Shown: positions 2,073-11,973 of the stretch, piece by piece
Position numbering within the stretch: the stretch's first letter is position 1
Layout: every line of letters begins with the position of its first letter
Source: Cyanobacteria bacterium P01_F01_bin.150
GTDB lineage: Bacteria > Cyanobacteriota > Cyanobacteriia > CAKZMO01
Direction: 5' to 3'
Length of the DNA: 64,000 nt
Assembly: GCA_039189765.1 (NCBI GenBank)
Contig: JBCCYL010000024.1
Location: 1-64,000 of the forward strand
Notes under the pieces: generated by a model
Told to the model about the DNA's origin: nothing
Databases searched by the model: none
Seen by the model: the letters and a program-made list of their open reading frames with translations, nothing else
Program-made: the position numbers and the translations under genes

Positions 2073-3644
2073 TTATGGACGGTTGATTTGGATAATTTCC
2101 GTTAGGATACTTTCCAATCCCCCATTCACGTTAATCCGTTCGATCTTATCGGCAATGCGCTCTAGTACCTCCAGCTCCTTTAACCGCAGAGCAACCGGAT
2201 TGCTTTCCATAACCTTGGCGGTGTTGAGCATGCTACGAGTGGCCGAAGTTTCCTCACGGCGACGAATCACGTTGGCCTGGGCCGCCTTCTCCGCTTCCAC
2301 TACCTGACACAGAATGGCCTTCATCTCACCGGGGAGAATAATATCCTTAACCCCGACCGATTCCACCTCAATTCCATACTCGGCAGTCTTCGAGAGAATG
2401 TAATCCGCCACACTAGAGTCGATCGCCCCCTTATCTTCCAAGAGGTCATCCAGCGATCGCGTCCCCACCGCCCCTCGCAGGGCAAACTGGAGTTCCTTAT
2501 ATAGAAAACCCTTGATATCCGCTAAGCCAGCCTTTGCCTTAACTGGATCAACAATGCGGTAGCCAGCGGTCAGATTCAAGCGCAGAGGCACCTTATCCTT
2601 TGAAAGAATTTCCTGACCGGATACATCCAGCGTTTGCAGACGTAGGTCTAGAACTTCAGTTTTGAGCGATCGCCCAAAAAGCCACCACACATGCCAACCT
2701 GGCTCCAGAGTCTCCTGTAGAGCCCCCTCGGAATAGAGCAAGCCCATATGCTGACTGGGTACTTCAGTAATATGCAGATGGGTATGGGCCAACTGGAAGA
2801 CTGCTGGCAACCCAGACACCAGTTCCTTCACCAATCGGGCTGGCAGCTTGGCGTCAGAGCTAAAGTTGATCACTTCCACTTCCACCCCACGCCAGAATAG
2901 CTGACGGCTGGTGGGCTGTAGAACCCCGATCACCTTTCCCTGGTAGCGGGCGATCGCCACTTCTTCTGCCCCCAAGGTCACGGCCTCACAGTACTCAGCT
3001 ACAAACTCAGGGTGCTGTTCCATTAACACGTCAGTGTTGGTAAAGCCAGGGATCGGCTTGGTGCGATCGTACAAGGTCACTCGAACCGTCTGACCATAGG
3101 TCCAGAACCCATATTCACCCGGCCCAAGAGGCCGCACAAAGTTATCTTGAATGTACAGCATGCCGATTTGGAACTCGGATACTCGCACAACTTTCAAGCC
3201 AGCCAAAGCGCTAGCGGCCTGATCCTTTACCTGTTCCACAAATGGGGTGGCCAGCTCTACGCTCTCATCCAGGTCAAAGCAATGGGCTTCCACATCAATA
3301 AATCCCCGCCAAAATAGGCGCAGTTGGTTGGGGGCGATCGCTTGCCACTGCTGTCCCACTCGAACCAGAGCCGCTTGGTTAAAGGCGGTCCGAACTACAA
3401 CAAATTGCTTATTAATCACATCAGCATGGGACTGCAACAATAACTCCACGTTATCGATGGTGGCTTTGGGAGTATTGAGATCAAAAATTTTTACGTTCCA
3501 GTGCCAGCCCATGCGGCGATGGGTGCCCGGCATAAGAACCTCTTGGAAATGACTGCGATAAAACAACATTCCCCGCTCGTTAGGCTTGATGTAAAACGTC
3601 TTGAATAGTTCGAACATAGCTCTTCTTCCTTGCAGCCGTGACAA
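2073..3644 (-). CDS. SPFH/band-7 (stomatin/prohibitin-like, slipin family) domain protein; alternative start at Met ~3617
   Basis: C-terminal half has SPFH hallmarks (..DIILPGEMKAILCQVVEAEKAAQANVIRRREETSATRSMLNTAKVM..NPVALRLKELEVLERIA..), long ORF with consistent codon usage. Confidence 0.75.
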   Translation of the reverse strand: MSRLQGRRAMFELFKTFYIKPNERGMLFYRSHFQEVLMPGTHRRMGWHWNVKIFDLNTPKATIDNVELLLQSHADVINKQFVVVRTAFNQAALVRVGQQWQAIAPNQLRLFWRGFIDVEAHCFDLDESVELATPFVEQVKDQAASALAGLKVVRVSEFQIGMLYIQDNFVRPLGPGEYGFWTYGQTVRVTLYDRTKPIPGFTNTDVLMEQHPEFVAEYCEAVTLGAEEVAIARYQGKVIGVLQPTSRQLFWRGVEVEVINFSSDAKLPARLVKELVSGLPAVFQLAHTHLHITEVPSQHMGLLYSEGALQETLEPGWHVWWLFGRSLKTEVLDLRLQTLDVSGQEILSKDKVPLRLNLTAGYRIVDPVKAKAGLADIKGFLYKELQFALRGAVGTRSLDDLLEDKGAIDSSVADYILSKTAEYGIEVESVGVKDIILPGEMKAILCQVVEAEKAAQANVIRRREETSATRSMLNTAKVMESNPVALRLKELEVLERIADKIERINVNGGLESILTEIIQINRP

Positions 3645-3790
3645 TTTTGGATTTTAGATTTTGGCTTTTGGCTGCGTTCCAGTTTTGAATAGTGACAGTT
3701 TGGGAGTTTGGGCGTTTGGGAGTTTGGGCGTTTTGAATTTTGAATTGGACTTTCTGCCTTCTGCCTTCTGCCTTCTACCTTCTGCCTTTT
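3645..3790. repeat. STRR-like tandem repeat array: (TTTTGGA/TTTTAGA)n, (GGGAGTTTGGGCGTTT)2, (TTTTGAA)2, (TGCCTTC)5; immediately 5' of SPFH start codon
   Basis: Direct reading of tandem units; same motif set recurs at 10345-10527, 11845-11895, 44351-44383 and inside CDS at 53014-53075. Confidence 0.85.
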
Positions 3791-4323
3791 TAAAGCTCTA
3801 CTGACGCTGGCATTTGCCGGGGTCTGTGCGGGCGATCGCCTGTACAGGAATGGATTAAGGCTCCCTTAGGGGCGGGCATGTCTTCTTAAGTTGCTCTGAT
3901 CAGATTGCTCTGACCAAAGTACTGTGGCAAGACATGTAAGATCGCCAAATATATTGTTCCGATTCTCCGTTGGAAAATAGGAAGAGATATACTCGATTCC
4001 AGTATCAAAAGCACTTCGCTAAAAGCGATGCGATGCGACTAGCTAAAAGCTACGCTACGCGATCGCGCTGGCCATTCCCTGGTGCTGTTTTCGCCTTGCT
4101 GTCCTGCATCTAGCGACTGTTTCCAGCGGTCAGATCCGGTTTAGTTTCGGCAAATTCAGCCCAATACCAGCACAGTAGAGCAGAGTGCGGAGTTGAACCG
4201 CATAGGATTTGTTTACCCTATTTACCAGTTGACGCTTGGAGAGCGCTGCTCTTGTAACCCCAGAGCGCGGGAGTACTTGTCCCTAACAAGTCGTCCTTAT
4301 TGCCCACAGGACTTGGGTAGCGT

Positions 4324-4399
4324 TGGCTAAACGTACAGGATTCGAACCTGCTACAGTCAGATTAACGGTCTGATGCTCTACCAATTGAGCTAACGTTTA
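4324..4399 (-). tRNA. tRNA-Asn (anticodon GTT), 76 nt with encoded CCA; unusual C at position 33
   Basis: Hand-folded cloverleaf: acceptor TAAACGT/ACGTTTA, D-stem GCTC/GAGC, anticodon stem TCAGA/TCTGA with loop CCGTTAA, T-arm GCAGG-TTCGAAT-CCTGT, discriminator G, CCA. Confidence 0.7.
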
Positions 4400-4402
4400 A
4401 GT

Positions 4403-4478
4403 TGGTACACGATGTAGGATTCGAACCTACGAATTCCGGATTTTAAGTCCAGTGCCTATTCCACTCGGCTAATCGCGT
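4403..4478 (-). tRNA. Non-canonical tRNA, 76 nt, anticodon UAA (Leu-decoding) but class-I architecture (5-nt variable loop), encoded CCA
   Basis: Hand-fold: acceptor ACGCGAT/ATCGTGT (one G-U), D-stem GCC/GGC, anticodon stem CTGGA/TCCGG (one U-G) with loop CTTAAAA, variable AATTC, T-arm GTAGG-TTCGAAT-CCTAC, discriminator A, CCA. Confidence 0.5.
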
Positions 4479-4646
4479 GATGACTACAGCACCATGTTCA
4501 GTGGTACACACCTGAGCAATTTTCAGCCCCAGTGCGCCGGTCAGGCTCAGAACCTGAACCACTACGTTCCACAATGTCGTATTCACCTCATACTACATAT
4601 GCTACAAAAACATTTTAAGGCTGTCAAGATGATGAGGGACCGGATC

Positions 4647-7600
4647 TCAGAGACCGTCACACAATCTCTTATCTTCGTCTCTAAGCTCAACCGGGTTATG
4701 GGCAACATGAAAGCGAAGCCAATCACAGCCATGAGCTACCATTGCATCCAAGCTAAGTGCCTTTAAATCCCAGAGTTTAATCGTCTTGTCTGAACTGCCG
4801 CTAATGAGGGTCTTGCCATTAGGACTGAAACTCACACTGGTGACCCAATCGTCATGGCCTATGAAGCTGCGGAGTTGCTGACCAGTCGTCACATCCCAGA
4901 GTTTGATTGTTTTATCCGCGCTGCCGCTAACGAGAGTCTTGCCATCGGCACTGAATCTGACACCCATGACCCAATTGTCATGACCTATAAAGTTGCGGAT
5001 TTCCTCTCCGGTCGTCACATCCCAGAGTTTGATCGTTTTGTCTGAACTGCCGCTAACGAGGGTCTTACCATCAGGACTGAAACTCACACTATTGATCCAA
5101 TCGTCATGACCTGTAAAGCTGCGGAGTTCCTTCCCGGTTGCCACATCCCAGAGTTTGATCGTCTTGTCCGTACTGCCGCTAATGAAGGTCTTACCATCGG
5201 CACTGAAACTCACACTATTAACCGACTCGTCATGGCCTATGAAGCCGCGAAGTTCCTCCCCGGTCGTCACATCCCAGAGTTTGATTGTTTTATCCGCGCT
5301 GCCGCTAACGAGAGTCTTGCCATCGGCACTGAAACTCACACTATTAACCGACTCGTCATGGCCTGTGAAGCTGCGGAGTTGCTCCCCAGTCTCCACATCC
5401 CAGAGGTTGATTGTCTTATCCGTACTGCCGCTAATGAGGGTCTTACCATCAGCACTGAAACTCACACTCATGACCCACAGGTCATGACCTGTAAAGCTAC
5501 GGAGTTCCTCCCCGGTCTCCACATCCCAGAGTTTGATCGTCTTGTCTGAACTGCTGCTAACGAAGGACTTGCCATCGGGACTGAAACTCACACTACTGAC
5601 CAACTGGTCATGACCTGTAAAGTTGTGGGGTTGCTCCCCAGTCTCCACATCCCAGAATTTGATTGTCTTGTCTAAACTGCTGCTAACAAGGGACTTGCCA
5701 TCGGGGCTAAAACTCACACTTATGACTGACTCGTTATGACCTGTGAAGCTACGGATTTCCTGCCCAGTCGCCACATCCCAGAGCTTGATCGTTTCGTCCG
5801 CACTGCCGCTAACAAGAGTCTGACCATCGGGGCTGAAACTGACCGTGACTGGCTCGTCATGACCTACAAAGCTGCGGAGTTGCTCCCCGGTCGCCACATC
5901 CCAGAGTTTGATCGTCTTGTCCGAACTTCCGCTAACGAGGGTCTGGCCATCAGGACTGAAACTCACACTAATGACCGCCTCATCATGACCTGTAAAGCTG
6001 CGGAGTTGCTCCCCAGTCGTCACATCCCAGAGTTTGATCATCGTGTCCGCACTGCCGCTAACGAGGGTCTGGCCATCAGAACTGAAACTGACACTACTGA
6101 ACGACTCGTCATGACCTGTGAAGCTGCGAAGTTGCTCCCCAGTGGCCACATCCCAAAGTTTGGCTGTCTTGTCCGCACTGCCGCTAACGAGGGTCTGGCC
6201 ATCAGGACTGAACCTGACACGCAAGACGTGCCTGTCATGGCCTGTGAAGCTGCGGAGTTCTTTCCCGGATTCCACATCCCAGAGTTTGATCGTCTTGTCC
6301 GCACTGCCGCTAACGAGGGTCTGGCCATCGGGGCTAAAACCGACACTCCAGACCCAATTGTCATGGCCTGTAAAGCTGTTGAGTTGCTCCCCGGTCACTA
6401 CATCCCAGAGTTTGACCGTCGTGTCATCACTGCCGCTAACGAGGGTCTGGCCATCGGGACTAAAACTGACACTCCTGACCCAACCGTCATGGCCTGTGAA
6501 GCTACGAACCTTATTACTCTTTAACATAACTTGCTGTAATGCATTCAGCCCCTCTGGTTGAGTAATTTGGTACTTCTGAAGAATAGTGCCTGCTCGAATG
6601 GCTTCCATCCACGCCTCAAAATCTTTACCTTCATTTAAAAGCGTTAATGAACCAAGCCCTGATGATCGCGCCTGGCTCAACTCGGCTTGTTTGATCGCTT
6701 TCTCCGCTCGTTTTAGTTGCTGTACCGCAACACCCCCACCTACCAATGCTAATACCAGCAACGATGCCAACCCCCCAATCACTAGCCGTTGCAGACGGAC
6801 CGATCGCTGCTGATTCATCTCCACCACCAACCGACTTGCTGTCACATACTCCCCCTGCAACGCCGTCGGACTCGGCTGCTTCTCCACTGCTCCCAACAAC
6901 CACTGCTCCGCCTCAGCCAAGTCACTCCCCCGCAGCAGCACATCCTCCCGTCGCCCCTTCTTATCCCACTCGATCGCCTTTACCAACAACTGCGTGTGAA
7001 ACCGCAAATGCTCCGGGTCCGTATCCAACGTCCGCAGCAGCTCCTTAAAATTGGTATCAAACTCCCCCTTATTCGCCGTAAAATCAATCCACTGCACCTT
7101 CGCCAACTCCGGATGCAAGTCCTTCGGATTCACCGGACGATGCAGCACCGTCACCATCCGCTTATTCAGCTTCGCCGCATACTCTACCTCATCAGCACAG
7201 TACGGAGACCTCACCGCCCGAGGCGACAGCACAAACAGAAAAAAATTCGACGTTTCAATTCCCTTGTAAATCTCCTGCTGAAAATCCGCCCCCGACGCAA
7301 TACTTTCCTGATCAAACCAGGTGCGCTTCCGCTGTCGTTGCAACGCATTATTTAACCGCCGGGCAAAATCTGAATCCGCCCGCGAATAGGAAATAAACAC
7401 ATCCGGAGCCACCGCCGCCGTCTGACTTTGACTCGCCTCAATAAAATCCTCCTGAATCTCCGTTGGCCCCTGCCCATCCTTCGCCTTCGCCACCTCCCGC
7501 CACGCCAGCGCATGTTGCAACTCATAGCCCTGAAGCAAAATACAGGGATTGCGCTGCTGCCGCTCCCACTTTAGCGCCTTGGTCAACAGCACCTTATGCT

Positions 7601-8717
7601 CCTTGTGATAGGTCGCATCCTGCTTTAACACCCGCAGCAGATCATCCTCATCCTGGAGATAATCCGCCTCCGTTTCATTGTCCGTCAGGTCAATATATTG
7701 GCGATTGCGCAGGAACACCGGAATCTCAGCCTCCTCCACCTGCCCCGCCAGCATAATAATCAGCCGCTTATTCAGTTGCAGCGATCGCTCCAATTCCATC
7801 TGACAATACTTCGACTTCAGCGAATGGGACGACATCAGCAACAGCACATTATCCGCCTGCTCTACCCCACGGGCGATCGCTCCCTCAAAATCATCCCCAT
7901 ACTCAATATCCGCCCGATAGCTCCAGGTAGTGATGCCGGAGCGCATAAGCGATCGCCTCACCGTCTCCGTCATCGCCCCATCTTCCTCCGCATGGGCCAA
8001 AAACACCTGGGTCATCAAGTTGTCGCCATTCTTGATGCTCTCGGTAATGTACTCATAATGCAAATCCGTCGGCCACAGAGGCGGCTGCTTATCCGCAAAC
8101 CGAACCGCCAGCCACTCCACCGCCTCTTGTTTATCCTCCCCAGTCAACAAGTAGCGGGTCTGCTTCTGATGTCGTTCCCACTCCAGTGCCTGATTCAGCA
8201 ACACCGTATGCTGATGCACATAGCCTTTTTCCAACTCCAGCAGCGCCAATATCTGCTGCAACGACTGCTCAAAATCATTAATCCCTTCCTTACACTGCAC
8301 CCAGTTAATTTTGCCGATTTCAGGATGCATATTTGTGTGGCAGGAATGCAGTCCCTCCGATTCATACTCAGCCCACTGGTCATCCGTGCCATCCAGATTG
8401 CGCTGCTGCCAGATCTCTTGGTCAATGTTCTCTACATGCAGCAGGGGAATAATCCGCTTTTTCCGCTTCAGCGCCAACTCAATTTCCAGTCGGCAATAGG
8501 CCGAATTGGTGGCATGGGGCGCAATGACAAACAGGAAATTATCCGCTTTTTCAATGCCATCATCAATTTGCTTTTGGTAATCTACCCCCAACGGAATATC
8601 TTCAAAATCAAACCAGACGGTGTAGCCCAACTCAACTAAGCGATCGTTCAGGTTCTTGGCAAAGTGCTTACTGTCGGCACGACCATAGGAAATAAAGACA
8701 TCTTGGAGAGGATTCAT
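4647..8717 (-). CDS. Giant multidomain protein: three tandem TIR domains (aa ~5-135, ~236-325, ~438-530), single TM helix (aa ~645-666), 14 WD40 repeats (two predicted 7-bladed propellers)
   Basis: TIR signatures DVFISYGRADS.. and DVFISYSRADSDFARRL.., divergent middle TIR VFLAHAEEDG..; each TIR followed by conserved H..LL..A.EWE...R..LL.G..L..A..WL module; hydrophobic LVIGGLASLLVLALVGGGVAV; 14x GHD..V.SV.FSPDG..L.SGS.D.TIKLWDV repeats. Confidence 0.85.
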   Translation of the reverse strand: MNPLQDVFISYGRADSKHFAKNLNDRLVELGYTVWFDFEDIPLGVDYQKQIDDGIEKADNFLFVIAPHATNSAYCRLEIELALKRKKRIIPLLHVENIDQEIWQQRNLDGTDDQWAEYESEGLHSCHTNMHPEIGKINWVQCKEGINDFEQSLQQILALLELEKGYVHQHTVLLNQALEWERHQKQTRYLLTGEDKQEAVEWLAVRFADKQPPLWPTDLHYEYITESIKNGDNLMTQVFLAHAEEDGAMTETVRRSLMRSGITTWSYRADIEYGDDFEGAIARGVEQADNVLLLMSSHSLKSKYCQMELERSLQLNKRLIIMLAGQVEEAEIPVFLRNRQYIDLTDNETEADYLQDEDDLLRVLKQDATYHKEHKVLLTKALKWERQQRNPCILLQGYELQHALAWREVAKAKDGQGPTEIQEDFIEASQSQTAAVAPDVFISYSRADSDFARRLNNALQRQRKRTWFDQESIASGADFQQEIYKGIETSNFFLFVLSPRAVRSPYCADEVEYAAKLNKRMVTVLHRPVNPKDLHPELAKVQWIDFTANKGEFDTNFKELLRTLDTDPEHLRFHTQLLVKAIEWDKKGRREDVLLRGSDLAEAEQWLLGAVEKQPSPTALQGEYVTASRLVVEMNQQRSVRLQRLVIGGLASLLVLALVGGGVAVQQLKRAEKAIKQAELSQARSSGLGSLTLLNEGKDFEAWMEAIRAGTILQKYQITQPEGLNALQQVMLKSNKVRSFTGHDGWVRSVSFSPDGQTLVSGSDDTTVKLWDVVTGEQLNSFTGHDNWVWSVGFSPDGQTLVSGSADKTIKLWDVESGKELRSFTGHDRHVLRVRFSPDGQTLVSGSADKTAKLWDVATGEQLRSFTGHDESFSSVSFSSDGQTLVSGSADTMIKLWDVTTGEQLRSFTGHDEAVISVSFSPDGQTLVSGSSDKTIKLWDVATGEQLRSFVGHDEPVTVSFSPDGQTLVSGSADETIKLWDVATGQEIRSFTGHNESVISVSFSPDGKSLVSSSLDKTIKFWDVETGEQPHNFTGHDQLVSSVSFSPDGKSFVSSSSDKTIKLWDVETGEELRSFTGHDLWVMSVSFSADGKTLISGSTDKTINLWDVETGEQLRSFTGHDESVNSVSFSADGKTLVSGSADKTIKLWDVTTGEELRGFIGHDESVNSVSFSADGKTFISGSTDKTIKLWDVATGKELRSFTGHDDWINSVSFSPDGKTLVSGSSDKTIKLWDVTTGEEIRNFIGHDNWVMGVRFSADGKTLVSGSADKTIKLWDVTTGQQLRSFIGHDDWVTSVSFSPNGKTLISGSSDKTIKLWDLKALSLDAMVAHGCDWLRFHVAHNPVELRDEDKRLCDGL

Positions 8718-10344: not shown

Positions 10345-10527
10345 AACGATTTTGGATTTTAGATTTTGATGGAGGAGTTGGGGAGTTAGGGCGTTTAAGG
10401 AGTTAGGGCGTTTAAGGAGTTAGGGCGTTTAAGGAGTTAGGGCGTTTAGGGAGTTTAAGGAGTTGGGAGTTGGATAGTCTGCCTTCTGCCTTCTGCCTTC
10501 TGCCTTCTGCCTTTTTTCCTTCTGCCT
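10345..10527. repeat. STRR-like tandem repeat array: (TTTTGGA/TTTTAGA)n, (GGAGTTAGGGCGTTTAA)4, (TGCCTTC)6; fills entire cupA-cupS intergenic space
   Basis: Direct reading; 17-mer repeated 4x, heptamer TGCCTTC 6x, ends at cupA stop codon and begins 7 nt after cupS ATG. Confidence 0.9.
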
Positions 10528-11835
10528 TTACCGATAGTCTTGGCTTTGAATATCCCTTAGCCGGGCTTCCGGACGTTTAAACCGATCGAGCTGAGTTTGA
10601 AAAAATTCGCGATTAGCCTGTAAGTGAGCTGGGTTTGGATCATCAAGGGGGTAAAGCAGGGCTTCTCGTAAGGCATGGATAACAGCAGAGGTGACGTTGT
10701 ACATGGAGCGCTGAAAGCTGACCCCCAGCTGAGTGATCATATCGTCTTCTCCTCGGCAATATTGCTTGTAATAGTCCACCAAGTAGGACGGCAGGAAGTG
10801 GAGCATATCTTGCATTAGCAATGTGGGTGGAATTCCTGCCGTCCCGACAGGAAAGAGATCGGCGTAAAGAATACCGTAGTGAAACTCTTCTTGATTGTTA
10901 GGAACCTGCTGGGCTTGAGCGTTATAGGATTTGGTGCCCCGGAAAGGGGATGTGCGGTAAAAAATGGCTTCAACATAGGGCAGCGCAGCTTCATAGAGCC
11001 ACATAAACCCTTTAGATTTTGGAATAATTTCGTAGCATTCGCCATCAATATAAGCGTGATGGTAAATAGGACGCCCGGACACAGCAAAGATGCCGTTCAC
11101 AAGAAAATCCATCGCTTCCGGAACAGTCTTTAAATTGCCCTCATCGTAAAGATCGGACATTTCGAAAAAGACGGCCGCCATCACCTCCCAGAACAAACCC
11201 AAGTTGGAATACTGAGATAGTTGCCGTACTTGTTCAATAAACATGTCAGGAAAAAGCTTATATAGTCCCAACATAACGGGATTGCTCTTGAAGTAGGCGC
11301 GAATGGCACGATCCGCGTTAGCCTTATATTCCTCAGTATCCAAGTAGGCATCAAACTTATTTACGGGAGCATACATGTGACGATGCCAAAGCATTGCCCT
11401 CATACAGGCCTCGGCAAATTCCATGTTGATGCGATCGTGATTCAAATGATGCAGCAGTCGAGGAAGGGTACGATTTGCACCTCCCTTCTTCATAAAGGCA
11501 AGCAGTTCAGGGTGCGCTTTTTCAGTGCCACGCCAAATTCTTAGGTCAGCATTGTCACCAGCATATTTGCTGGGGAGATCGAGATAGTCTTGGGAAATAA
11601 AGTACTTAAAAGCGGGAAGGGGATTGAGAAATACCTGTTCGGCAATGTAAAGCAAATCACGCCAGTAGAAATCCATTGGTACCGCATAGGCCTTATAGAT
11701 ACCAATAATTTGCATCAGGTTTTCAGGGGTATCCGGTAGCATGGACCCGCCTGCTTCCAGACGATGAATCACCTCAGCAAATTCATGATTTGCTGGGGGA
11801 AGGGCCGTAGAAGCAGGTGCGGTGGTAGTGGTCAT
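10528..11835 (-). CDS. cupA: CO2 hydration protein CupA/ChpY of the NDH-1MS high-affinity CO2 uptake complex
   Basis: ~435 aa, ChpX/ChpY family features, positioned immediately downstream of ndhD3 on the same strand as in canonical ndhF3-ndhD3-cupA-cupS operons. Confidence 0.8.
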   Translation of the reverse strand: MTTTTAPASTALPPANHEFAEVIHRLEAGGSMLPDTPENLMQIIGIYKAYAVPMDFYWRDLLYIAEQVFLNPLPAFKYFISQDYLDLPSKYAGDNADLRIWRGTEKAHPELLAFMKKGGANRTLPRLLHHLNHDRINMEFAEACMRAMLWHRHMYAPVNKFDAYLDTEEYKANADRAIRAYFKSNPVMLGLYKLFPDMFIEQVRQLSQYSNLGLFWEVMAAVFFEMSDLYDEGNLKTVPEAMDFLVNGIFAVSGRPIYHHAYIDGECYEIIPKSKGFMWLYEAALPYVEAIFYRTSPFRGTKSYNAQAQQVPNNQEEFHYGILYADLFPVGTAGIPPTLLMQDMLHFLPSYLVDYYKQYCRGEDDMITQLGVSFQRSMYNVTSAVIHALREALLYPLDDPNPAHLQANREFFQTQLDRFKRPEARLRDIQSQDYR

Positions 11836-11844
11836 AGTTCAGCA

Positions 11845-11895
11845 AGGGAGTTTGGGAGTTAGAGCGTTTGGGAGTTAAAGCGTTTGGGAGTTAGT
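11845..11895. repeat. STRR-like tandem repeats (GGGAGTTWGAGCGTTT)n in ndhD3-cupA spacer
   Basis: gggagtttgggagttagagcgtttgggagttaaagcgtttgggagttag. Confidence 0.85.
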
Positions 11896-11973
11896 TTGGC
11901 TAATAAACACGGCAGTGCTGTACTAAAGCTTAGCGTAGTGGTTGTTTATGAACAGTAAGGACCCTAATGTAGC

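Follow-up and report, generated by a model that had tools for sequence, protein, structure and literature searches.

A syntenic pair of tRNA genes with changing anticodons in a conserved, apparently structured RNA unit of cyanobacteria

The anticodon is normally the most conserved part of orthologous tRNA genes, and tRNA remolding is known mainly from eukaryotes and organelles. Two reports describe the synteny-based detection of anticodon shifts in eukaryotic genomes (PMC3923123) and, in yeast, a genetic adaptation of the tRNA gene pool after deletion of a tRNA gene, a case of fast tRNA gene evolution under altered translational demands (PMC3868979). Cyanobacterial L-arrays, such as that of PCC 7120, comprise up to 43 densely packed tRNA genes (PMC8421152) and are mobile or plasmid-borne, and repressed by TrcR until translational stress (PMC8421152, PMC10272220). 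Here, we describe a different locus in Cyanobacteria bacterium P01_F01_bin.150 (assembly GCA_039189765.1, contig JBCCYL010000024.1, positions 1 to 64,000; the whole of this 64-kb stretch is henceforth termed the window), in which two adjacent tRNA genes, tRNA2 and tRNA1, lie upstream of a gene of the slipin/SPFH family. In seven lineages, the syntenic tRNA1 gene carries five anticodons on an almost invariant body. As judged from sequence comparison, the conserved structured RNA locus around the pair appears to be previously undescribed.

Two tRNA genes and no more are called by ARAGORN in the window, each on the minus strand. The upstream gene, tRNA2 (4478..4403), is called tRNA-Leu(taa) and matches Rfam RF00005 with 64.4 bits, and the downstream gene, tRNA1 (4399..4324), is called tRNA-Asn(gtt) and scores 64.6 bits (gathering score 29 bits; E ~1e-11 for both). 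Each is 76 nt long with an encoded CCA and adopts a cloverleaf as its minimum-free-energy fold; the spacer between them measures 3 nt. tRNA1 reads, 5' to 3', UAAACGU-UA-GCUC-AAUUGGUA-GAGC-A-UCAGA-CCGUUAA-UCUGA-CUGUA-GCAGG-UUCGAAU-CCUGU-ACGUUUA-G-CCA. Its anticodon loop CCGUUAA consists of C32, C33, the anticodon GUU, A37 and A38, with U1-A72 and the discriminator G73 in the acceptor stem region. tRNA2 reads ACGCGAU-UA-GCCG-AGUGGAAU-AGGC-A-CUGGA-CUUAAAA-UCCGG-AAUUC-GUAGG-UUCGAAU-CCUAC-AUCGUGU-A-CCA; it is a class-I tRNA with U33, the anticodon UAA and A37 in the loop CUUAAAA, a 5-nt variable loop (AAUUC), A1-U72 and A73. An initial annotation of this DNA, based on folding by hand, had proposed two 76-nt cloverleafs with CCA, a tRNA-Asn(GUU) with C33, and a partner with the loop CUUAAAA, a 5-nt variable loop, A1-U72 and A73. 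The sequence, the Rfam scores and the computed folds agree with each of these descriptions, and ARAGORN assigned the same GUU and UAA anticodons as the hand folds. A G3·U70 wobble in the tRNA2 acceptor stem (ACGCGAU/AUCGUGU) was absent from that earlier description, as was the strand of the pair.

To place the pair in context, we identified orthologous loci by tracing homologues of the downstream SPFH protein to their contigs, which gave a comparative sample of eight loci in two clades. The homologues are 90% (two proteins), 79%, 71%, 70% and 70% identical to the window protein. A homologous unit is present in six species-level loci (L234, L235, L236, L238, L245 and L248), that is, in seven with the window, and in all seven it shares the strand of the SPFH gene and precedes it by 250-1000 nt, in the order promoter, structured leader, tRNA2, tRNA1, structured tRNA-like trailer. 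Two SPFH loci, in Acaryochloris thomasi (L237) and L244, are without any trace of the unit. The neighbours on the far side differ at every locus (Uma2, hypothetical proteins, a glycosyltransferase and others). Because these outer neighbours change, the SPFH/slipin gene is, on this comparison, the only conserved neighbour of the unit, and the TIR-WD40 gene that borders it in the window is incidental. Since the unit keeps its place beside one and the same chromosomal SPFH gene across seven divergent loci, the operon was vertically inherited upstream of this gene within a group of poorly sampled cyanobacteria.

The unit differs at no more than 1 of 551 nt among six independent assemblies of the L238 species and at no position among three assemblies of the L245 species, and because these replicates agree, the odd loops are not assembly errors. 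The window itself derives from a metagenome-assembled genome, so that its C33 could in principle be an assembly error. The tRNA1 bodies are 78-99% identical across loci; at four-fold degenerate sites of the SPFH gene, the closest loci share only 54-60% of their bases and loci of different clades 24-44%. That the bodies are far more alike than these sites suggests strong purifying selection on the tRNA bodies.

Across the seven loci, the D and anticodon stems of tRNA1 are invariant together with its CCA and most of its T arm, 97.3% of cloverleaf cells are paired, and the acceptor stem shows compensatory changes. The anticodon loop reads CCGUUAA in the window and CUGUUAA in L236 and L238 (all GUU), CUCUUAA in L234 (CUU), UUUUUAA in L235 (UUU), CUCAUAA in L248 (CAU) and AUAGGGU in L245 (AGG). 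Counted as minimum changes per column, the anticodon has 2.0, other loop positions 1.25, the acceptor stem 0.79, the D and T arms 0.29-0.31 and the anticodon stem 0; the anticodon takes 6 of the 36 changes in 3 of the 76 columns (binomial P = 0.003). The anticodon is thus the fastest-evolving part of tRNA1. The bodies of L234 and L236, for example, are 99% identical, and their anticodons differ (C34 vs G34). GUU, CUU, UUU and CAU are joined by single substitutions and all come with A37, and the sole NGG anticodon, AGG in L245, comes with G37, as in real tRNAs. Since GUU occurs in both clades (three of the seven loci), it is probably the ancestral tRNA1 anticodon. C33 is confined to the window; because L236, one of its two closest relatives, has U33, the window copy seems to have changed U33 to C recently. 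With CUU, UUU, CAU and AGG among its orthologues, tRNA1 has no stable asparagine identity, and because the orthologues in L234 and L235 read CUU and UUU, it cannot be the sole tRNA-Asn gene there. Such Lys-reading orthologues in close relatives also make it unlikely that the window copy is the only tRNA-Asn gene of its genome.

The partner gene varies more strongly in form. The tRNA2 loop is CUUAAAA (UAA) in the window, CUCUAAA (CUA) in L234, where a 26-nt GNRA hairpin is inserted in the T loop, and CUCAUAA (CAU) in L235, where 1 nt is missing from the 3' acceptor strand. L238 has a 6-nt anticodon loop and L248 one of 5-6 nt, both without CCA; the gene is mostly deleted in L245 and cut by the contig end in L236. 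Consequently, tRNA2 is degenerate in four of the five relatives in which the whole gene is readable. Because the orthologues carry CUA, CAU or short loops, UAA is a local state of tRNA2 and no trait of the family. At 3:70, G·U is confined to the window, and L234 has A-U and L235 G-C; this is the pattern typical of an intermediate in compensatory change and not of an alanine determinant under selection. We additionally observed that the T-loop insertion of L234 (~1250-1275) folds as a CUAGCG-GCAA-CGCUAG hairpin within a tRNA2 whose CUA loop is amber-reading. The antisense strand of tRNA2 (4405-4478, plus strand) matches Rfam RF04354, 'Plastid-ycf2 5UTR', with 48.4 bits against a gathering score of 65.7. 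Read on its opposite strand, the RF04354 consensus gives a tRNA with a CAU anticodon loop, by gene order plastid trnI-CAU. This may point to an Ile2/Met-type body in tRNA2, but the identity to the RF04354 consensus is only 62%, which makes it a hint only.

Conservation extends beyond the tRNA genes on both sides. A putative sigma-70-like promoter, TTGACA-17 nt-TAGCAT (4627..4599, minus strand; 10/12 matches in a consensus scan), lies at the upstream end of the unit, and its -35 TTGACA and -10 TAGCAT/TAGTAT are kept in L234 and L235, both of clade A. The leader of ~55 nt (4506..4561, minus strand) folds into two hairpins (GGUUCAGGUUCUGAGCCUGACC; GCGCACUGGGGCUGAAAAUUGCUCAGGUGUGU) in an RNAalifold analysis of six orthologues; 3 of the 20 pairs show compensatory changes, and long stretches of the leader do not vary. 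The trailer (4323..4056, minus strand) holds six helices and 43 pairs, with 94% of cells paired. Its first part resembles a third tRNA: H1 (4312..4293) is D-arm-like, H2 (4291..4275; ACUUG-UUAGGGA-CAAGU) is anticodon-arm-like, both aligning with compensatory pairs, and H3 (4187..4201; GCGG-UUCAACU-CCGC) is a T-arm-like hairpin with GGUUCRANUCC in all orthologues. The 7-nt loop of H2 keeps a Y-U-NNN-R-A frame in which NNN varies (AGG, UGG, UGG, GAG, CAA, UUU, UAG). H4-H6 (4065..4173) form a long-range helix, GUGCUGGU/GCCAGCGC, around a long hairpin that ends in a GAAA tetraloop (C-GGAAAC-G); here too there are compensatory pairs, namely 7 of 9 in helix 5 and 4 of 11 in helix 6. The whole trailer contains 15 compensatory pairs, as compared to 6.3 ± 1.6 in shuffles (0/500 as high) and 3-8 in slid controls, and this covariation supports a structured trailer.

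No acceptor stem was found for the third tRNA-like element (H1-H3), and neither ARAGORN nor Rfam calls it a tRNA. Searches of the window and two orthologous loci with the Rfam 15 families other than tRNA, a set including GOLLD, ROOL, OLE, HEARO, YrlA, tmRNA and the group I intron, returned no passing match at E up to 10. A scan of the whole unit for a cis triplet covarying with any of the three anticodons gave nothing above 3-4 of the seven loci. On this comparative evidence, leader and trailer are a conserved and apparently structured RNA without an Rfam match.

Known identity elements bear on which amino acids the two tRNAs would carry. For the synthetases of Asn, Lys, Met and Pro, the anticodon is among the major determinants, and the identities of MetRS and AsnRS are transplantable through it (PMC9976931). 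Because these enzymes read the anticodon, a shift in the tRNA1 body would tend to change charging and decoding together. Bacterial asparagine determinants are GUU, G73 and U1-A72, the last being the amidotransferase determinant (PMC9976931); tRNA1 has all three, and departs from the canonical U33 of tRNA-Asn. Leucine tRNAs of bacteria belong to class II and have a long variable arm. E. coli-type LeuRS requires A73 and tertiary elements of the D and T loops, not the long arm or the anticodon; its determinants are A73, A15-U48 and, within the D loop, G18G19/A20a (PMC9976931). tRNA2, with its 5-nt variable loop, is not of class II; it has A73 and G18G19, and carries G15-C48 instead of A15-U48.

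The reading we favour, with slightly better than even confidence, is that a spare tRNA pair has undergone repeated anticodon shifts inside a conserved structured RNA operon, with UAA and C33 as its current states. tRNA1 would be an Asn-type spare tRNA, and tRNA2 a class-I tRNA whose anticodon shifted to UAA and no leucine tRNA by descent. In the proposed sequence of events, the unit would be transcribed from the conserved putative promoter, and RNase P and 3' processing would cut out CCA-ending tRNAs. tRNA1 would be charged according to its anticodon, in the window genome with asparagine, and C33 would lower its decoding efficiency; for tRNA2, A73 would permit LeuRS, and G3·U70 together with A73 could admit AlaRS. 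Both genes would be accessory, and because housekeeping tRNAs elsewhere are proposed to cover decoding, the anticodons would be free to shift, or to be selected for lineage needs. A mixed picture, in which tRNA1 is a working tRNA and the other elements are structural, is quite possible: the degenerate tRNA2 orthologues and the acceptor-less third element speak for a structural role of these two, and the fully canonical tRNA1 with CCA at all seven loci speaks for tRNA function of that gene.

Several observations weigh against decoding as the common function of these elements. Some tRNA1 orthologues have acceptor mismatches, for example at 1:72 in L245 and L248, and the discriminator tracks phylogeny, not the anticodon, with G73 accompanying Lys anticodons and A73 accompanying GUU in L238. 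AGG is, to our knowledge, not a normal bacterial anticodon. tRNA2 is no consistent decoder, given the short loops of L238 and L248, the insertion in L234, the acceptor deletion in L235 and the deletion in L245. Finally, the third element combines an authentic anticodon-loop frame and a variable triplet with the lack of an acceptor stem, and because of this lack, variable 'anticodons' occur at this locus without aminoacylation.

The genes around the unit were also analyzed. Upstream lies an open reading frame (ORF) of 1356 aa (8717..4647, minus strand) encoding three TIR domains followed by ~14 WD40 repeats, whose protein matches PADLOC TIR/ThsB-like models. The initial annotation had the tRNA pair directly abutting this gene; the pair does follow it, 169 nt past the stop codon, but other genes occupy this position in the orthologous loci. 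The accompanying suggestion of the tRNA locus as an integration point was not supported, as no integrase, phage genes or flanking repeats were found around the pair in the window. Downstream, ~700 nt without any minus-strand ORF of at least 60 aa separate tRNA1 from the SPFH/Band-7 gene of the slipin family (3617..2073, minus strand; Pfam Band_7 2.4e-35). Its longest ORF starts at 3644, and alignment with homologues points to 3617 as the likely ATG. The protein shows only weak HflK/C similarity against NCBIfam and no match to defence-system models; its N-terminal ~290 aa have no Pfam match and contain repeated FWRG-type motifs. Between the trailer and this gene, two non-coding blocks on the minus strand (3826..3859), CUUAAUCCA (3859..3851) and GAUCGCCCGCAC (3837..3826), are identical in all seven loci despite saturated neutral sites; given a promoter-like site at 3976..3948, these blocks may be part of the 5' region of SPFH. 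A putative terminator-like hairpin with a U-run, UCGCUUUUAGCGA-AGUGCUUUUG (4006..4028, minus strand; consensus scan), lies within a window-specific insertion and is absent from the orthologous loci.

Further features of the region include short tandem repeats at 3681-3791, 10365-10530 and 11833-11908, with units such as GGAGTTTG/GGCGTTTG and CTGCCTT, in several intergenic regions, and an inverted repeat of 28 nt downstream of the SPFH gene (1606-1633 / 1806-1833; 89% complementary, 172 nt between the arms). A composite transposon, suggested by two 523-aa ORFs, was rejected, the two proteins being unrelated (SPFH and NdhD-like). In L248, a kinase-like gene with a faint AAA_33 match and a Thg1-like gene follow directly after SPFH (5576-6777), at this one locus only; the Thg1 family is associated with tRNA 5'-end repair. 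Elsewhere, the window holds ChpXY genes, an NdhD-like gene and HIP1 sites, all of which point to a cyanobacterium, and its ChpX protein is 100% identical to one from Cyanobacteria bacterium P01_F01_bin.150. Three ORFs of the window had no exact protein match on record, probably owing to the choice of start codon.

We also searched for relatives of the pair outside this group of loci. The initial annotation had treated a class-I body with UAA as exceptional, yet this type is common in viral contigs, accounting for 117/120 among the matches listed (IMG/VR contigs L001-L120; class-I length 73-79 nt). The CCA-encoding class-I tRNA(UAA) genes among the matches listed have A73 in 40/42, G1·U72 in 26/42 and G3·U70 in 0/42 cases. 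Single class-I tRNA(UAA) copies occur in genomes L147-L160, from Actinobacteria (Citricoccus, Arthrobacter, Herbiconiux, Mycobacterium montefiorense) and Verrucomicrobia. tRNA-Asn with C33 is found in 26 viral contigs of one phage clade, and the same pattern with U33 in at least 120; C33 is present in 9 of 516 unselected viral tRNAs. The C33 clade (L121-L146, mostly from metagenome 3300045988) has two tRNA-Asn paralogues with the loop CCGUUAA in the array order Lys-Asn-Leu(CAA)-Asn-Leu(UAA)-Trp, and its tRNA-Ser(AGA) and tRNA-Gly(UCC) also have C33. A class-I tRNA(UAA) followed by tRNA-Asn was encountered as 42 adjacent pairs across viral contigs, metagenomes and genomes, and every one of them has U33; the 14 matches to the pair pattern in the genome collection (species representatives, which do not include the source genome) include none from cyanobacteria. 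For tRNA2 the best viral match reaches ~82% identity over 55 nt, for tRNA1 88% over 58 nt, and the window tRNA bodies are 91-96% identical to their clade-A orthologues. BLAST of the tRNA region and the trailer against phage and plasmid collections gave generic tRNA or simple-repeat matches only. In viral contigs, the tRNA1 core pattern hit one unrelated phage tRNA-Met, the leader 15-mer gave chance matches only, the gapped leader motif a chance match in a lambdoid outer-membrane gene, and the trailer motif nothing.

These results bear on explanations other than a shifting spare pair. The main rival, which we regard as possible though unlikely, holds that the tRNA-shaped elements do not decode and belong, as modules, to a larger RNA or a long SPFH leader, serving as processing punctuation, protein-binding tRNA mimics or anticodon-loop displays, with a triplet free to drift or diversify. 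The conserved, structured leader (20 pairs) and trailer (43 pairs, 15 compensatory) are what it would predict, as are an anticodon that changes far faster than the body, degenerate tRNA2 copies in four of five fully readable relatives, and three anticodon arms that share a fixed Y-U-NNN-R-A frame around a variable NNN, one of them without an acceptor stem. It fits less well with tRNA1, which in all seven loci keeps all the features of a working tRNA, among them CCA, a 7-nt loop, an R37 that matches N36 and an acceptor stem with compensatory changes. In addition, GUU is kept in three of the seven loci despite saturated neutral sites, and because it persists across both clades, the tRNA1 triplet is not simply unconstrained. 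Nor does any triplet in the unit covary with the anticodons, and no Rfam family except tRNA matches. A further proposal, which we consider doubtful, is a structured RNA of ~0.6-0.9 kb whose three tRNA-shaped modules with diversifying triplets act as a decoy or sensor for anticodon nucleases, toxins or another anticodon-reading factor and not as ordinary decoders; such an RNA may also be coupled to SPFH, the gene downstream.

Recognition by AlaRS is independent of the anticodon, which opens the view of tRNA2 as a deliberate mistranslator, an AlaRS substrate inserting alanine at UUA/UUG leucine codons. G3·U70 is the major, transplantable alanine determinant, with A73 also needed, and G2-C71, G4-C69 and G20 are minor bacterial determinants (PMC9976931). 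Although tRNA2 has both G3·U70 and A73, the wobble is not conserved in orthologues (A3-U70 in L234, G3-C70 in L235), and all the minor determinants are absent, their places being taken by C2-G71, C4-G69 and A20. Moreover, ~42 of every 1000 codons in the long ORFs of the window are UUA or UUG, so that efficient alanine insertion would be costly, and a mistranslator is accordingly very unlikely. Comparably slim chances attach to decaying pseudogenes or an ordinary housekeeping tRNA-Asn and tRNA-Leu(UAA). C33, the degenerate tRNA2 orthologues and the acceptor mismatches do look like decay, and the 64-kb window contains no further tRNA gene. However, simple decay is excluded by bodies, leader and trailer that are far more conserved than neutral sites, a housekeeping asparagine role by the Lys-, Met- or Pro-type anticodons of the orthologues, and tRNA2 is of class I with G15-C48 in place of the leucine element A15-U48. 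The idea of a phage or mobile-element tRNA cassette, recently arrived next to a TIR defence gene and supplying A/U-rich codons or nuclease-resistant tRNAs with C33 as an escape mutation, is least credible to us. Phage tRNAs are reported to evade anticodon nucleases through loop mutations (PMC10264068), and the common viral class-I UAA tRNAs (117/120 among the matches listed), the 42 loci with adjacent tRNA(UAA) and tRNA-Asn, the C33 clade and the three TIR domains of the upstream ORF would all suit it. Yet the unit is syntenic with the SPFH gene in seven divergent cyanobacterial loci, the viral matches fall below those to clade-A orthologues (82% and 88% vs 91-96%), every phage-type pair has U33, UAA is not the anticodon of the orthologues, and the TIR gene is no conserved neighbour. 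A recent phage origin was thus rejected, given distant viral matches, the lack of phage or integrase genes and flanking repeats, and the lack of any match in the phage and plasmid collections.

The locus has implications under either class of explanation. If the tRNAs are charged, it would represent a natural and repeatedly used route for re-assigning a spare tRNA; among its states, CUA in L234 could act as a stop-codon suppressor and UAA with G3·U70 in the window as a mistranslator. If they are not, it would define a new structured RNA on which anticodon loops are displayed. In both cases, it offers a concrete, testable system for the evolution of tRNA identity in bacteria, and automatic 'tRNA-Leu' and 'tRNA-Asn' labels at such loci are not to be trusted.

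Among described systems, alloacceptor shifts or remolding (PMC3923123) come close in that syntenic orthologues keep the body and a changed anticodon alters the amino acid. The tRNA1 shifts are mostly single-step (GUU, CUU, UUU, CAU), among synthetases that read the anticodon. Unlike those cases, five anticodons in seven orthologues of one bacterial gene are unusually frequent, the partner gene and a third element vary too, and a structured leader and trailer surround the genes. With cyanobacterial L-arrays, which form an operon with atypical members and pseudogenes, the locus shares accessory, non-housekeeping tRNA genes, and the initial annotation had accordingly suggested an identity-switched or regulatory tRNA as in Nostocales arrays. 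The orthologues do carry other anticodons, but there are only two tRNA genes in 64 kb, and 0-2 per orthologous locus, plus the acceptor-less element, and no long array. The site is also a fixed chromosomal one beside the SPFH gene, and its host lies outside Nostocales, the closest named relatives of the window proteins being Leptolyngbyaceae/Acaryochloris-like. No TrcR-type regulator was seen at the locus, although none was specifically searched for. The 2021 L-array paper makes no mention of C33 or class-I leucine tRNAs. Phage tRNA(UAA) plus tRNA-Asn clusters resemble the pair in the class-I body, UAA, A73, an often encoded CCA and adjacency, with C33 recurring in one clade; the pair differs from them in being chromosomal and syntenic, in an identity of at most 82-88% over the core, and in a UAA not common to the orthologues, so that common descent with the phage class-I tRNA(UAA) family is not supported by the comparison. 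tmRNA and YrlA, a Y RNA-like RNA (RF02553), likewise contain tRNA-shaped domains in a larger structured RNA. YrlA matches at the locus are weak (17-23 bits vs a gathering score of 69), ARAGORN finds no tmRNA in the window, and no Rsr/Ro gene occurs among the annotated neighbours. Unlike in YrlA and tmRNA, two of the tRNA-shaped modules here are complete tRNAs with CCA.

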